A stretch of 64,000 bases of DNA from IMG/VR virus record IMGVR_UViG_3300037466_003065, positions 120,788 through 184,787 of that record; one strand, given 5' to 3'. Shown here piece by piece: positions 30,038 through 50,506 of the stretch; positions within the stretch are counted from its first letter, which is position 1; each line of letters begins with the position of its first letter. Under the pieces are notes generated by a model, which was not told the origin of the DNA, searched no databases, and was given only the letters and a program-made list of their open reading frames with translations. This DNA is from a virus. Position numbers and translations under genes: made by a program.

Positions 30038-30361
30038 TCACTCCTCCTCAATGGGAGCCAGCACCATAGTAATCCTGGCCCACCTCCCGTAACGCTCCCT
30101 CATCTGCTGGGCGATGCTCTCCAACTCGCCGAGGTCTCTGATCTCTTTGTCCTCGGTGTGGACTTCGCGGTCGTCGGATAAGGCGGGGATGACGACGGTG
30201 ACGGTGAGCTTCTGCATGGGGCTCTCCTTGCTGGCATGATCGAGCAGGTAAGTGATCAGGTCGGCGTTGGAGTCGAGGTGGTGCTTGGTACGGATGGCCT
30301 CGACCCGATCCCGGATCGCGTTGCCTGGGTCGCTGATCTCGATGGTGTAGCGGTTCAGCAT
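30038..30361 (-). CDS. putative ribbon-helix-helix DNA-binding protein
   Basis: RYTIEI strand + NAIRDRVEAIRTKH helix + SNADLITYLLDHA helix. Confidence 0.55.
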   Translation of the reverse strand: MLNRYTIEISDPGNAIRDRVEAIRTKHHLDSNADLITYLLDHASKESPMQKLTVTVVIPALSDDREVHTEDKEIRDLGELESIAQQMRERYGRWARITMVLAPIEEE

Positions 30362-30363
30362 AA

Positions 30364-30414
30364 CTGTACTCGTAACAGTAATATCTCAGACCGACTGTAC
30401 TGGTAATCTGTACT
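30364..30414. repeat. three CTGTACT heptamer direct repeats (candidate operator)
   Basis: 30364-30370, 30395-30401 and 30408-30414, directly upstream of the RHH gene; a fourth at 30812-30818. Confidence 0.55.
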
Positions 30415-30693
30415 GGTTTGTCGTAACTCCTTTGGTGATATGGACTTGTGTAGGATGCCCCGGTACATCGCCTGTGCTGTAACCCCTTGTGGTTCCTCCA
30501 GTTATGAGTGGTGTGTGCAAGTCGTGGTGGTGGCGGTGGTTACGTGAGGTTGCGAAGAGTTGTGATCGTTGGTTGACATGGACTTAGGTACAGATGGGTG
30601 TGGCCGGGGCATACAGGGCACGCTACCCCACCAATACCCGAACCCGCCACCTGACCCCGCGTCGGCATCCCATGCTACCATACCGCTACGCAC

Positions 30694-31061
30694 TGTCCCA
30701 ATTCTGCGACATGATCCTCTGCACATTACTGCTGGACGTGTCCCAATTCTGCGACAGCAACCGTGGCATGGTTACCAACTGTGCTGTCCCAATTCTGCGA
30801 CACCTACCAAACTGTACTGTCGCAGTTCTGCGACACCTACCACGGTGCGTGCACGCGGGCACTGTCCCAATTCTGCGACACTCATCACGACGTGTGTGCA
30901 AAGGTGGTGTCGCAAAACTGGGACACTGTCCCCGCACTATTACATGAGGGGGTGTCCCAATTCTGCGACAGTGAACCACACACCGTTACACATCATGGTG
31001 TCCCAATTCTGCGACAGTGTTCATCATGTGATTACGCAGCAGGTGTCCCAATTCTGCGACA
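30694..31061. repeat. array of nine 18-bp pseudo-palindromic repeats (TGTCCCAATTCTGCGACA) with unique spacers
   Basis: Copies start at 30694, 30739, 30785, 30818 (variant), 30863, 30908 (inverted variant), 30953, 30999 and 31044; period 45-46 bp except one of 33. Confidence 0.95.
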
Positions 31062-31353
31062 CGTAATCCCTACCCCATTAGTCCGGCAGTGTGAACCGGT
31101 GGGCGTGCTTCATGCTGTGCCACCACACCGGTCGGCTCTTGTTGGTGCGGAGGATGAGGATCGTGATGTTGAGGCTCTGGCCCCCGCCGTCCTCCATCGC
31201 GACGCCCTGGATCAGCACCTCCTCGTTCAGATCCAGTCGGAGTAGAGCAGGCGAGTACGCCACCGCATCGCGTTGCACAGATCCATGAAGTCTGCGTTCT
31301 GCATGAGATGCTCCTCGAAGTGAAAGTGTGTTGCCCCCGCCGGCCTGTTTCGA

Positions 31354-36426: not shown

Positions 36427-36819
36427 GTGGAACACGAGCTCATCCTTATGTTCCACAGGGGAACATCCGATGTCGGGGGCATGGATTTCAACACGGGCTA
36501 CATCATGGGGCTGGTCGTTGGCGGGGGCTGCTTCACGATCCACCAGAACAAGAAGAGTGGGCAGGTCACACCGACGTTCAGCCTGAAGCTGCACGAGCGG
36601 GACTACCAGCCACTACTCGACCTGCAGAAGCTGTTGGGAGGGACGATCTACGGGCCCTACAACCACCAGAAGCGGAAGTATCGGGCGCTCTTCGTGCGAG
36701 GGGCTGATCTGGCGAAGGCGATCCCTGTGTTCGACAACTACCTGCCGAAGAGCCACAAGAGGGATCAGTTCTCGGCTTGGTTGGAGCACGAACGGGTCAG
36801 GGTGCTGTGGCAGAAATGA
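36427..36819 (+). CDS. single-motif LAGLIDADG homing-endonuclease-like protein, probably catalytically inactive
   Basis: GYIMGLVVGGGCFTI helix (acidic metal ligand replaced by Gly), FSLKL strand, LLDLQKLLGGTIY, IPVFDNYL..SHKRDQF; start may be 36448 or 36481. Confidence 0.75.
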   Translation: MEHELILMFHRGTSDVGGMDFNTGYIMGLVVGGGCFTIHQNKKSGQVTPTFSLKLHERDYQPLLDLQKLLGGTIYGPYNHQKRKYRALFVRGADLAKAIPVFDNYLPKSHKRDQFSAWLEHERVRVLWQK

Positions 36820-37440: not shown

Positions 37441-38022
37441 TTACCCGAGGCCAGTCTCGTGCGAGTCGAGACTCTCGTTCTCGCCACCGATCGAGAGCCG
37501 CAGGAAGTCGTGGGCACAAGGGCCGTCATGACCCTTGGTGCGGGTGCAGGCGGCATAGCCGGGCGTGGGAGGGATGGAGCCGCAACGGGGGAGGGGATGG
37601 GGCAGCTTGTGCGGAGCCGATAAAGCGGCGGGGTGGATACCCTCGACGTGGTTCGGGTCGAGGGTCGGCACCTCGACTCGCGGGGCCTCATACACTGCGG
37701 GAGCCAAGAAGCTGAACCCACGCCTGACCGTGACGGCCATGTTCTCCTGCTGCTCCTGCAGACCGGGAGGGAGCTCGATCTTCGCGCCGGGCAAGAACTT
37801 CTCCTTGAAGTAGGTATCCAGCCCCGCGAAATTTTCGATAGTCGCCGGAATCGTGACCCGCAGGCCGCACCGGTCGCAGAACAGCGCCTTCGCCGTCGCC
37901 GTCGTCTGGTGGCACGAGACCAGGCCGCCGCAGGTGGTGTGGATCCCCGCGCCGAACGCGTTGATCTTCTCGTGGGGCATGCCGAACACCGACAACCGAT
38001 CGCCGTCCGTGGAGATAATCAT
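37441..38022 (-). CDS. Zn-ribbon hypothetical protein
   Basis: HTTCGG...FCDRCG; start MIISTDG is uncertain. Confidence 0.55.
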   Translation of the reverse strand: MIISTDGDRLSVFGMPHEKINAFGAGIHTTCGGLVSCHQTTATAKALFCDRCGLRVTIPATIENFAGLDTYFKEKFLPGAKIELPPGLQEQQENMAVTVRRGFSFLAPAVYEAPRVEVPTLDPNHVEGIHPAALSAPHKLPHPLPRCGSIPPTPGYAACTRTKGHDGPCAHDFLRLSIGGENESLDSHETGLG

Positions 38023-38067: not shown

Positions 38068-38153
38068 TGTCCCATTTCTGCGACAGTCCCAGAACTGCGA
38101 CAGTCCCAGTTTTGCGACAGGGTAGAAATCCCTGGTGTCGCAGAATTGGGACA
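38068..38153. repeat. second cluster (4 copies) of the 18-bp motif
   Basis: 38068-38085, 38085-38102 and 38102-38119 in tandem at 17-bp period; 38136-38153 is an exact inverted consensus copy. Confidence 0.9.
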
Positions 38154-38551
38154 CCGTTTCCTGCTCCGGCCAATAGCCCCCTCTTTATCCCTGACCCTGG
38201 CAGAGCGTGCCGGGCCAGTCGATATCTCCCCCTCTGGGGGATGGGGCATCTACCGGATGAGGGGTAGAGGGTGGTCTCGTTCGTCACCAGGAAAGGAGTC
38301 CGGGGCTTGGGTCAGGTCGTGGTTCGTCAGGGGGGAGACGTTGGCCACACTGGATTTAGTTGCCCGGGAAATCTGGTGCTTCGTGCTGACCCTGTAAAGG
38401 CACGGTTTCTGCCGTCCTAAGTATCTGCGCTTTCAGCCTGCGCTACGAGCGGACGGTCTCGACATGCTCGTCTTGACCACAATGGATTGTCTCGGGAGAG
38501 TCGGCTGGATGATCCCCTCCACTTCAAAATTTTGAATTGCCCGGAAAGCTC

Positions 38552-41960: not shown

Positions 41961-42172
41961 GCGGCGACCTGGTCGTCGCCGACGAGTCGCTCGAATGGAT
42001 TGAGCCGGACTCCGCGACCCTCTTGAAGCGGAGCGTCTTCCCTTCGTTCAGGGAGCTGTGCGAGATCTTTGGCATTCCTCCGAACCTCGTGGTTCCCGCA
42101 GATGAAATCATCGTCCCCACCTTCCCCGAAGGTCTCCGTCCGGCTCCGTCGCCAGTTCGACGCGATCCGTGA
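41957..42172 (+). CDS. hypothetical protein
   Basis: GTGA-coupled start. Confidence 0.4.
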   Translation: MSGDLVVADESLEWIEPDSATLLKRSVFPSFRELCEIFGIPPNLVVPADEIIVPTFPEGLRPAPSPVRRDP

Positions 42173-42350
42173 GGAGATGGTCTCGATCGCCGGCGCCGCG
42201 CAGCACGCCGACCCCGCCGTCCGCAAGCGAATCCTCAAGCTGTTGAAAGCCGAGCACGAACGTCTCGAGGTCGTGCACAACCACATTGGCCAAATCGAGT
42301 TGCTCGAGGACTACATCGAAAACAAACGCAAAAACCGCAAAAACCAGTGA
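42102..42350 (+). CDS. hypothetical coiled-coil protein
   Basis: Codon-biased ORF; start uncertain. Confidence 0.5.
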   Translation: MKSSSPPSPKVSVRLRRQFDAIREEMVSIAGAAQHADPAVRKRILKLLKAEHERLEVVHNHIGQIELLEDYIENKRKNRKNQ

Positions 42351-42396
42351 AAAACGTCGATTTGGAGCCGTTTTCCACTGGTTTTTGCGGTTTTTG
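42329..42396. repeat. 28-bp A-tract inverted repeat (hairpin/cruciform, possible bidirectional terminator)
   Basis: 42329-42356 vs 42369-42396, 27/28 match, 12-nt loop. Confidence 0.85.
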
Positions 42397-42711
42397 AGAC
42401 TTTTCTGCTACGCCCGTTTGGGGCCCTCTGTAGCCACTGGCTCATTCCTTTCGACAGAGGTCGCCTCCCCGCTCGCGCGTGCCATTAAATATCGGACGTT
42501 GGCCGCTCGGGCCTTGAGTCGCGAAATCGAACACTTTTCTCTAACAGGCGTATACTTTACGAAAACCTCGCATTAACTTACTATTATGCAGTATTGTAAA
42601 CTTGCATAGATTACAAATGCAACGCCGTCGCCGCGTCATCCTGTAATACCAGAGCGTCAACGTGGCCGTTTTGCCTCGATGCCACGGCGTGAAACCTGAG
42701 AGATTATTTCA

Positions 42712-42739
42712 TTGATTTCTTTTGAGCGGCCCGTACACT
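42712..42739 (+). promoter_or_regulatory. sigma70-type promoter in AT-rich intergenic region
   Basis: TTGATT-N16-TACACT. Confidence 0.4.
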
Positions 42740-43011
42740 TCCCCCTCAGTTGATCGCAAATGCCGTAGCTGCGATCAGCTACGTGACCCAACAAATTAGA
42801 GCCGTGGCGGGCGACACTTCTCATACTTCAGGGAGGCATGCCCGCCGCCGCAGGCCGAAGAAACGTCGTACCGCCGTCCCTTCTCCCTGCCGTGACCCGT
42901 CGCCGTGAGCCGCGAGGGCCCGACTCCGAATGCTGGATCCCGGAGTGGTGAACGAGATGAATAGGGTCACCTCGCAGCTATGAAAGCTGTATAGGCAAGG
43001 GAAGAATAGGC

Positions 43012-48706: not shown

Positions 48707-50506
48707 ATGGCTGAGAAGATATCCCGTAACGCGGACAAGTACCTCATGGGGTCTGAAAAGACCAAGGAGGAGCTCGTCCAGTTCTGGCAACAGAACCCCG
48801 TCATCGCGGCGAGGGACATCTACGGCGAGGACGTCTGCGACTTCGACAAGCCCCAACAGGTCTACGTCAACACCGTCTGGAAGCACGACCAGGTCATCGG
48901 GGTGATGAGCCGCGGCACCGGTAAGACGTTCACCAGTGGCGCCACCGCCGGCCTGGCCGGCCTGCTCTACCCCGGCAATCGCGTCGGCCTGATCGGCCCC
49001 TCGTTCCGGCAGAGCAAGATGCTCTTTCGCGAGATCGAGGCCCTGTGGGAGGCATCGCCCCTGTTCCAGGAGGCGACCGTCCGGGCCCCGTCGTGGACGC
49101 CGGAGAGCTGCTACATCAAGTTCCACGCCGCCCCCGGCCGGAAGGCGAGCTGGATCGAGGCCCTGCCGCTCGGCACGGACGGCAGCAAGATCCGCGGTGC
49201 CCGCTTCTACTGGCTGTTCGGCGACGAGGGCGCCCAGATCGAGAGCGACATCCTCGACACGGTCGTGTTCGGGTTCTTGGCCACCAGCGGCAACCCGATG
49301 AAGAACGTCCGCGAGCTCGAGCGGCAGCGGAAGTTGATTGCTGCCGGCCTGATGGAAGAGTCGGAGCTGATCAAGCCCAAGGCCAACAAGTTCATCCTCA
49401 CCTCGACGGCCTACTACCAGTACAACCACCTCTGGACGCGCGTCCAGAAGTTCATCCAGGACATCCTCGCCCAGAAGCGTAAGCACCTCAAATCGGGCAT
49501 GAGCCCGGAGGAGGTCGCCAAGCTGATCGTCTGCAAGGGTGGGGCCCTGAACGAGGGGCAGATCCCGCACCGTGTGATGAGCGACGGGACGAACGCACTG
49601 TGCGCGTTCACCTACAAGGACATGTCCGAAGGGTTCATGTCCGAGAAGACGATCGAGAACGCCCGGCTCACCATGAGCCAATACAAGTTCCTGATGGAGT
49701 ATTGGGCGTACTTCCCGCCCGACTCCGAGGGCTTCTTCCGCCGCAACCTGCTCGACCGGCAGCGGGAGCACCGGCGGTTCTCGGCCGTGATCGACCCGCA
49801 ACCGGGGATGATCTACGTCATGGGGGTCGACCCCGCCCGGTCGTCGGACAACTTCTCGATCGCGATCTTCGAGATCGACCCGACCCGCATGTCGGTCAAC
49901 CTGGTGCGGGTCATGGCGTGGAACAACAAGTCGTTCCCGTACATGCACCAGGAAGTCCGTCGCCTGATCCGCCACTACAAGATCGAATACTTCAAGATGG
50001 ACGGCGGGGGCGGCGGCACGACGATTCGCGACCTACTCGCCAACGACATGAATTGCCCCCCGGGCGACTCGCTGATCCTCGAGCACGACAACGAGGATCA
50101 CAAGCTCCTGGTCGGCAAGAAGATCCTCGGCCCGCTCGTCAACTTCAGCTCGGCCCAGTGGGTCGAGGACGCGAACGACAACCTCCTCTCGGGCCTCCAA
50201 CACAACCGCCTCCTGATCCATGCCCCGTTCCCCGTGGGCTCCGAGCTCACGACGGCCGGCGCCGAATTGAACGAGAAGGAGCTGGCCGACGAGGAGATGG
50301 AGCACGCCCTGTCCGAGTGGTCGTCGATCGTCCAGTCGCTGGTCGGCAACCGTCGCCACTTCGACACGCCCAGCAGCACGCAACGCAAGGACAGGTACTC
50401 CGCGATCCTGATCGGCTACGACGCGGCCCTGCACGTACTCGGAAGACTCGGTAAGCCTCGCACGCTCGCCATGGGCGGGTGGGGGCAGATTCACGCGCAA
50501 CGATAG
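48707..50506 (+). CDS. terL: terminase large subunit
   Basis: SRGTGKT Walker A, GARF...GDE Walker B, STA coupling motif, GVDPAR nuclease Asp, KDRYSA. Confidence 0.92.
   Translation: MAEKISRNADKYLMGSEKTKEELVQFWQQNPVIAARDIYGEDVCDFDKPQQVYVNTVWKHDQVIGVMSRGTGKTFTSGATAGLAGLLYPGNRVGLIGPSFRQSKMLFREIEALWEASPLFQEATVRAPSWTPESCYIKFHAAPGRKASWIEALPLGTDGSKIRGARFYWLFGDEGAQIESDILDTVVFGFLATSGNPMKNVRELERQRKLIAAGLMEESELIKPKANKFILTSTAYYQYNHLWTRVQKFIQDILAQKRKHLKSGMSPEEVAKLIVCKGGALNEGQIPHRVMSDGTNALCAFTYKDMSEGFMSEKTIENARLTMSQYKFLMEYWAYFPPDSEGFFRRNLLDRQREHRRFSAVIDPQPGMIYVMGVDPARSSDNFSIAIFEIDPTRMSVNLVRVMAWNNKSFPYMHQEVRRLIRHYKIEYFKMDGGGGGTTIRDLLANDMNCPPGDSLILEHDNEDHKLLVGKKILGPLVNFSSAQWVEDANDNLLSGLQHNRLLIHAPFPVGSELTTAGAELNEKELADEEMEHALSEWSSIVQSLVGNRRHFDTPSSTQRKDRYSAILIGYDAALHVLGRLGKPRTLAMGGWGQIHAQR

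Follow-up and report, generated by a model that had tools for sequence, protein, structure and literature searches.

An 18-bp near-palindrome at three non-coding loci of a large phage genome most likely docks one DNA-binding protein

Analysis of a 184,787-bp phage genome (IMG/VR record IMGVR_UViG_3300037466_003065, rated complete; GC content 64.8%) revealed 17 copies of an 18-bp near-palindrome, all of them non-coding. These 18-mers most likely dock one DNA-binding protein and do not represent a CRISPR-like RNA array. With a probability of about 0.5, we read the three loci at which they occur as a docking set for one sequence-specific protein that probably acts in transcription, and in which the nine-copy locus (here named array B) serves as a roadblock or as an operon control array. 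The stretch of DNA that was analyzed, here called the window, comprises the last 64 kb (64,000 nucleotides) of the record and contains array B and the smaller cluster C; the equally small cluster A lies in the other part of the genome (Table 1). Positions refer to the window unless genome positions are named.

The phage is distant from all cultured phages, as its large terminase subunit (TerL; 48707-50503) is only 26% identical to its best match. On a gene map derived from codon-position GC, the genes fall into four long transcription blocks with just two divergent switch points, located at genome positions 57.8/58.3 kb and 158.9/159.5 kb. The ends of the record, which IMG/VR lists as linear, overlap by 192 nt with one mismatch (genome 1-192 and 184596-184787), indicating that the record either carries a terminal repeat or was assembled in a circularly permuted form. 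Furthermore, the genome contains very large open reading frames of 3991, 2773, and 1613 amino acids (genome 1128-13100, 21739-30057, and others) and a nucleotide- and DNA-modification set with genes for a dCMP deaminase, the N-terminal domain of a dATP/dGTP diphosphohydrolase, two GT4 glycosyltransferases, a PAPS-reductase-like protein, and C5 and N6 methylases.

A preliminary description of the window had reported nine copies of the 18-mer at a period of about 45 bp, one of them a near-perfect palindrome and one inverted, separated by unique spacers of 27 to 28 nt and one of 15 nt. All of this was confirmed. Seven of the nine copies match the consensus TGTCCCAATTCTGCGACA exactly, the copy at 30818 is the symmetric variant TGTCGCAGTTCTGCGACA, and the one at 30908 is inverted and reads TGTCCCAGTTTTGCGACA on the minus strand. 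Successive copies start 45, 46, 33, 45, 45, 45, 46, and 45 bp apart, and the eight spacers (seven long, one short) all differ from each other. When up to 3 mismatches are allowed, TGTCCCAATTCTGCGACA is matched 12 times in the window, compared to 0.02 matches expected from shuffled sequences.

Table 1. Positions of the 18-bp sites and of the genes and sequence elements discussed in the text. Positions refer to the window unless marked otherwise.
Feature	Position	Strand	Description
Array B	30694-31061	.	nine 18-bp sites, 45-bp period, in a non-coding 716-bp gap between two minus-strand genes
Site B1	30694-30711	+	exact consensus TGTCCCAATTCTGCGACA
Site B2	30739-30756	+	exact
Site B3	30785-30802	+	exact; followed by the sole short spacer (15 nt)
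Site B4	30818-30835	.	symmetric variant TGTCGCAGTTCTGCGACA, 7-4-7 palindrome
Site B5	30863-30880	+	exact
Site B6	30908-30925	-	inverted copy, TGTCCCAGTTTTGCGACA on the minus strand
Site B7	30953-30970	+	exact
Site B8	30999-31016	+	exact
Site B9	31044-31061	+	exact; ends 16 nt away from where the upstream 66-aa gene stops (stop codon)
In-register RTTAC words	30725-31035	+	five words, TTAC at 30726, 30772, 30940, 30986, 31032
107-aa gene	30038-30361	-	downstream of array B; 'RHH' of the preliminary description; no family; no Shine-Dalgarno sequence
Stretch between array B and next gene	30362-30693	-	332 bp, non-coding, many minus-strand RTTAC words
66-aa gene	31078-31278	-	upstream of array B; no family
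LAGLIDADG_1 gene	36427-36819	+	130 aa, Pfam E = 1e-11
P0003	37441-38022	-	193-aa Cys-rich gene; ATG 46 nt from cluster C
Cluster C	38068-38153	.	abutting sites at 38068, 38085, 38102 (17-bp period) and inverted site at 38136-38153
Cluster A	genome 58032-58128		four copies
TAATC-N9-GATTA sites	genome 20901, 48629, 58005, 58325, 58371, 107983, 159342 (= window 38555), and others		second palindromic operator family
TGTCGCAGTTCTGCGACA loci in prokaryotes	L039-L158 (e.g., L056:6971-6988, L096)		matches to the symmetric variant

Array B sits within a long leftward block, 332 bp upstream of the 107-aa gene. It shows no coding-like frame, with a third-position GC of 0.54 to 0.58 versus 0.85 in both flanking genes. 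A promoter scanner found no sigma-70-type promoter in or beside the array, and tandem sigma-70 promoters inside its units were considered and rejected, as none was seen by eye or with the scanner. Searches at the array found no terminator and no Rfam family. No terminator-like hairpin was found between the stop codon of the 66-aa gene and the array, so that transcripts from upstream would run into it. On the downstream side, the sole dip in GC is one 50-bp interval at 0.40 (30362-30411), located beside the gene start and some 280 bp away from the array. Directly upstream of the 107-aa gene (30362-30420) lie three (C/G)AGTACAG repeats, and an RTTAC precedes each of them.

A second motif, TTAC, had been described as hidden inside the full-length spacers, and it proved to be real. 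In five of the seven long spacers, TTAC has a fixed offset relative to the following repeat (9, 9, 9, 9, and 8 nt upstream of it) and is always preceded by a purine (RTTAC). Shuffling did not produce any 4-mer in register in five spacers (0 of 20,000 shuffles; p of about 5e-5). Over the 716-bp gap, TTAC/GTAA occurs 14 to 18 times per kb, compared to 1.9 times for the window as a whole. Apart from TTAC, similarity among the five spacers is weak, with 32% identity versus 25% expected (p of about 0.01).

Beyond array B, a search of all 184,787 bp with up to 4 mismatches found the 18-mer in two four-copy clusters only. Clusters A and C each occupy one of the genome's sole two divergent intergenic regions and share a common plan, in which three abutting copies (17- to 18-bp period, no spacers) are accompanied by a fourth copy 34 to 44 bp on. 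An operator set is expected to consist of dyad-symmetric sites that are confined to intergenic control regions and recur at several loci, as is the case here, and both the restriction to three non-coding loci and the shared layout at the two switch points argue for transcription control. Clusters A and C, being free of spacers, show that the repeat and not the spacer is the working unit.

An alignment of all 17 copies shows a 7-4-7 near-palindrome with the left half-site TGTCCCA and the right half-site TGCGACA. Position 5 is C in 14 copies, whereas all 17 have C at the mirror position 14, i.e., 14 copies have the asymmetric form and three the symmetric one. This conserved polarity points to selection on the exact site rather than to the decay of a palindrome. 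Together with the dyad, it is consistent with the main reading, and the predicted binder is probably a dimer with a fixed polarity.

Both divergent regions also share other elements. To the right of each cluster lie two CCCCCTCT words on the plus strand (genome 58134, 58214, 158964, and 159015, the latter two at 38177 and 38228 of the window), and the whole genome has one further intergenic copy. Judging from this placement, CCCCCTCT may be a promoter element common to both rightward control regions. Furthermore, a second palindromic operator family, TAATC-N9-GATTA, has about ten intergenic sites and is represented in both divergent regions, where these independent operators add to the evidence for transcription control. 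In a relative (the 5-kb contig L031, from sample 3300066006), both TAATC halves changed together, from GGTAATC...GATTACT to GGTGATC...GATCACT; this covariation of the halves shows that the phage does use operator arrays.

A promoter-like pair, TTGCAG-N17-TCTAAT, begins 28 nt downstream of the end of one cluster C site; it was read by eye and found no support from the scanner. In our own reading, this pair would start a leaderless transcript of P0003. The gene P0003 itself contains a hotspot of variation: in comparison to the sister contig L034, 78 of 95 differences fall into a 215-bp patch (37559-37774). The two contigs are 99.4% identical over 13 kb, but owing to this patch the P0003 proteins share only 82% identity. 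The hypervariable patch adjoins cluster C.

The analysis shows the sites together with their distribution, asymmetry, and invariance, whereas binding by a protein, the identity of this protein, and the sign and target of any regulation are inferred. The 17 sites would form one set, with four in each of the divergent control regions that head the four transcription blocks and a nine-site platform, array B, in a long leftward block of small unknown genes. Cooperative filling of the abutting sites would switch the divergent promoters, and a second factor may read the in-register RTTAC word and act with the nine-site platform. The platform could be a high-capacity roadblock or insulator against transcription from upstream. 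As a second option, it could control the operon beginning at 30361 from an upstream position. The missing coding signal of the array and the expected entry of upstream transcripts count in favor of the main reading. Against the main reading stand the lack of a sigma-70-type promoter in or beside array B in the scan and the strict 45-bp period of nine sites, which is unusual for operators and recalls a centromere or copy-control array.

Multi-operator regulons are found in several phages, such as P1 with its C1 sites, cluster A mycobacteriophages with their stoperators, and phiC31 with its conserved inverted repeats, and their sites are scattered singly or in pairs. The present set resembles them in having one short, phage-specific site at several intergenic loci and in a putative genome-wide control of transcription, whereas the strict nine-site period and the in-register second word are atypical of regulons. 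The omega system of plasmid pSM19035 uses 7-bp heptads that are always contiguous, are bound by an RHH protein, and serve as operators and centromeres both. Here, the likeness lies in three clusters of abutting direct and inverted sites upstream of promoters, and one protein could serve regulation as well as DNA handling. In contrast to omega, neither an RHH protein nor a delta (ParA) partner was found in the phage.

The binder is most likely phage encoded, but no cognate binder of the 18-mer was identified among the candidates examined, and this counts against the main reading. The genes flanking array B matched no Pfam or PHROG family and no DNA-binding family. The preliminary description had proposed the 107-aa protein as an RHH partner of the array; this was not borne out by Pfam, PHROGs, AlphaFold with Foldseek, or ESM Atlas, and the assignment was dropped. 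The AlphaFold model (pLDDT 66) has a beta-alpha-alpha-beta-alpha-beta order and no RHH match in Foldseek, and the ESM Atlas score of 0.83 came with no informative neighbor.

DNA-binding proteins recognized elsewhere in the genome comprise a MerR-like protein (near 21.5 kb), the HTH_8 protein P0015 (107.7 kb), a true HTH_36 protein (genome 118049-118759), an AbrB/SymE-like protein (137.8 kb), the LAGLIDADG protein, and several sigma factors. None of them adjoins an 18-mer cluster, which again speaks against the main reading. Between array B and cluster C, the LAGLIDADG_1 gene is the only one on the plus strand. As homodimeric LAGLIDADG-fold proteins recognize pseudo-palindromes of about 20 bp, its 130-aa product is a candidate binder. 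P0015 (L016:17736-17978, minus strand) is the only Fis-type HTH_8 gene. The TAATC-N9-GATTA copy directly upstream of it suggests autoregulation through this site and makes P0015 a better candidate for that operator family than for the 18-mer. No XRE-type HTH_3 protein was found in the search, and a profile search with the candidate proteins against one motif-rich planctomycete genome gave no homologues. Resemblances of the 18-mer to DnaA, LexA, and lux/tra boxes were partial and were dropped.

Comparing arrays in related phages had been suggested as a way to tell guides from DNA sites. In four contigs from sister samples, the array is unchanged except for one SNP, and no unit has been gained or lost; five assemblies that come from different samples all contain identical spacers. 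The spacers are thus invariant, but the sister contigs are 99.8 to 99.9% identical overall, which makes this a weak test of turnover that excludes only rapid change. BLAST searches of 50,697 phage records with the region and with its 24-kb surroundings revealed no DNA relatives, the exact 18-mer gave no more than single chance matches in viral and metagenome contigs, and the flanking proteins of array B had no relatives in IMG/VR. Homologue searches returned only the same phage (99.4 to 99.9% identity) and the 5-kb relative L031, which covers only the region of cluster A.

This relative has the same gene order, keeps the surrounding operators, and encodes a homologue of P0002, the gene adjoining cluster A, with 49% identity. 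However, the repeat cluster is absent from the equivalent region and from the gene itself, and in comparison to L031 about 230 bp, with cluster A among them, are inserted in the phage. The sites are therefore a recent acquisition specific to this lineage. That cluster A is missing beside a neighboring gene of 49% identity is a further point against the main reading.

Among the other explanations, replication control survives best, and we regard it as possible though unlikely. The 18-mers would then be iterons for the phage initiator, cluster A would be the origin heading the replication module, and array B and cluster C would be extra origins or arrays for titration or handcuffing. Indeed, the gene immediately downstream of cluster A is P0002, which opens a block that encodes RecA, DnaB, a Toprim primase, and a split Pol III alpha. 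P0002 resembles viral winged-helix proteins of the HTH_36/RepA_N type (ESM Atlas 0.96), and P0002 and its homologue gave weak PHROG matches to 'replication initiation O-like'. Four dyad-symmetric sites of 18 to 19 bp recall the lambda origin, and the 4 + 9 layout recalls P1 incC/incA. Iteron arrays of this kind are clusters of one 18- to 19-bp site at a spacing of about 22 bp, and in the phage, too, a nine-copy array lies apart from a smaller cluster that adjoins an initiator-like gene.

Iterons usually recur about every 22 bp, but the periods in the phage are 17 bp (A and C) and 45 bp (B), and one copy is inverted; direct repeats of 17 to 22 bp phased at about two helical turns were not found. 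Neither is there a clear AT-rich unwinding element beside any cluster. GC skew was dropped as an origin marker, as it tracks the direction of transcription only and mirrors gene orientation. P0002 stays below the Pfam threshold for HTH_36, its AlphaFold model was too poor to use, and searching the PDB with a profile returned nothing. Finally, L031 keeps the initiator-like gene and the operators and has no repeat cluster. The origin that the preliminary description had listed among the roles of a nucleoprotein platform is thus left with equivocal evidence and an atypical spacing.

Recruitment or titration of a host factor appears rather improbable. It would mean that a host regulator reads the sites and that the phage couples its promoters to this factor or soaks it up. 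A scan of one genome per prokaryotic species found the symmetric variant TGTCGCAGTTCTGCGACA in at least 120 contigs, compared to roughly 10 to 20 expected, and the matches listed are mostly from Alphaproteobacteria. Among these listed matches, 63 have TGTCGCAGTTCTGCGACA 1 to 50 nt past the stop codon of a gene for a GAF+Fis-HTH regulator, and in 66 it precedes a CTGACA box by exactly 27 to 28 nt and the acetaldehyde dehydrogenase gene exaC by about 110 nt. The alphaproteobacterial TGTCGCAGTTCTGCGACA is hence a conserved operator that probably belongs to EtgR-like activators. An EtgR-like regulator has been described, with no binding site given (PMC12214560). As a side result, we hence provide a predicted binding site for a widespread alphaproteobacterial regulator of alcohol/aldehyde metabolism.

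The symmetric variant of the phage is identical to this bacterial operator in all 18 letters, and alphaproteobacterial genomes usually hold one copy versus 17 in the phage. The distance to the next element is also shared: the long spacers of array B measure 27 to 28 nt, and in our own reading a site of cluster C ends 28 nt before a -35-like hexamer. However, 14 of the 17 phage copies are asymmetric, unlike the host palindrome, and only three are symmetric. A homologue of the GAF+Fis-HTH regulator and exaC were not found in the phage, which consequently lacks the arrangement of TGTCGCA-N4-TGCGACA beside both genes.

The probable host lineage also argues against such an operator. The phage encodes a FliA-type sigma factor (L013:5992-6864, minus strand; genome about 41992-42864) that is 55 to 61% identical to FliA in 56 of 61 genomes of a planctomycete order, compared to 28 to 38% identity in alpha-, actino-, and acidobacteria. 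The FliA match points to the order of Aeoliella as the source of the host, and the phage probably infects planctomycetes, a group whose phage biology is, to our knowledge, almost unknown. RecA was uninformative for host inference, with 51 to 57% identity to all phyla. In 60 of the 61 genomes of Aeoliella's order, the motif occurs at chance level.

The palindrome also recurs elsewhere. The Aeoliella sp. metagenome-assembled genome G009 (L160-L173) contains a hairpin family, GTTTTGTCGCA-loop(4-27 nt)-TGCGACAAAAC, clustered in intergenic DNA, and has 11 perfect sites versus 0 to 1 in each of the 60 other genomes of the order. An unrelated phage of lower GC content (IMG/VR UViG 3300031867_000843; L159:390-520) carries the same symmetric 18-mer and two partial copies of it in its immunity region, flanked by a CI-like repressor gene on one side and a small RHH-like gene on the other, where the palindrome may be independently used as an operator. 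Furthermore, the symmetric palindrome is conserved in Actinomyces. Occurrence in the exaC operator, in planctomycete repeats, and in another phage indicates convergent recurrence, so that the palindrome cannot name its binder, and it weakens the case for a host factor.

About as doubtful as a host factor is a more elaborate reading of array B as a composite periodic element of 45 bp, in which the polar 18-bp site and RTTAC would recruit two proteins. These would form a sopC-like filament that organizes or insulates a large lytic genome without ParABS, TubZ, or Cas, and that may use or sequester a host factor. If true, a composite two-protein nucleoprotein element would be of a kind not yet described in phages. 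Array B is distinctive in its very regular nine-unit platform and the second in-register word, but no finding demands a new mechanism.

Still less probable is a centromere-like or genome-organizing platform, on whose evenly spaced inverted repeats a protein would nucleate to position, bridge, or compact phage DNA. In architecture, sopC of the F plasmid comes closest, with 12 repeats of 43 bp that each contain a 16-bp inverted repeat bound by SopB (PMC3177203). Array B likewise consists of tandem units (43 to 45 bp in the two systems) in non-coding DNA, each with one inverted-repeat site of 16 to 18 bp, and clusters A and C could be bridging partners. However, sopC repeats the whole unit beside sopAB, whereas the spacers of array B are unique and the array is not beside any candidate NTPase operon. 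Moreover, the phage site also forms spacer-less promoter clusters.

Searches of the complete genome gave no match to ParB_N (PF02195) at E <= 1 and none to the ParA family AAA_31 (PF13614) or tubulin (PF00091), while the controls matched. The inverted-repeat array is therefore the only part of a ParABS- or sopC-type system that was found, and neither a ParB-family protein nor a partition NTPase accompanies it. Pfam scans of the predicted proteins likewise revealed no integrase and no plasmid-type functions. A prophage-plasmid centromere is thus unsupported, and the centromere role considered in the preliminary description could not be substantiated; the same holds for packaging, as TerL is about 18 kb away from array B.

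It is very improbable that the copies are selfish or structural hairpin repeats of the REP/BIME type with no dedicated phage function. The planctomycete genome G009 does have the same half-sites as dispersed, species-specific intergenic hairpins, but the phage copies lack the extended GTTT/AAAC stems, are found at only three highly specific places with a precise period and a fixed asymmetry, and are not accompanied by a Y1-transposase-like family in the Pfam scans.

Least credible of all is a guide-RNA array that is transcribed and processed into repeat-spacer units for an unknown effector. Its appeal lies in the regular alternation of a short repeat with unique spacers of about 27 nt, a CRISPR-like length, and in folding z-scores of -6.5 and -4.1, although such strongly negative values are trivially expected from repeated palindromes. 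CRISPR repeats are longer and co-oriented, and TIGR arrays alternate two repeats, have short paired spacers, and come with a Nop-domain Tas protein. In array B, by contrast, the repeat measures 18 nt, below the 23 to 50 nt or so of CRISPR repeats, copy B6 is inverted, and there is one repeat type only. Two of the three loci are free of spacers and lie in promoter regions, and array B has no promoter-like site.

The BLAST searches proposed for the spacers yielded no credible target, neither in the phage's own genome (best match 17 of 18 bases, E = 0.009) nor in 50,697 phage records (a single 21-nt match, E = 1), and no foreign spacers with turnover were seen. Pfam scans of 189 predicted genes (five ORFs >1000 aa excluded), which included 163 mid-size and 20 large predicted proteins, found no Cas-like family and no Nop-domain family as in TIGR-Tas, so that the absence of cas genes noted in the preliminary description was upheld within this scope. 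Of the two readings offered there, the guide-RNA-like array is hence unsupported, and the nucleoprotein platform agrees with the promoter clusters, the dyad, the intergenic location, and the invariant spacers.

In summary, a CRISPR-looking layout can arise from protein sites. On the preferred reading as docking sites for one protein, the three-locus set marks two master control regions and one unusual periodic platform in the phage genome, and the sites provide a handle for DNA pull-down of the regulator and for dissecting early-to-late control or genome organization.
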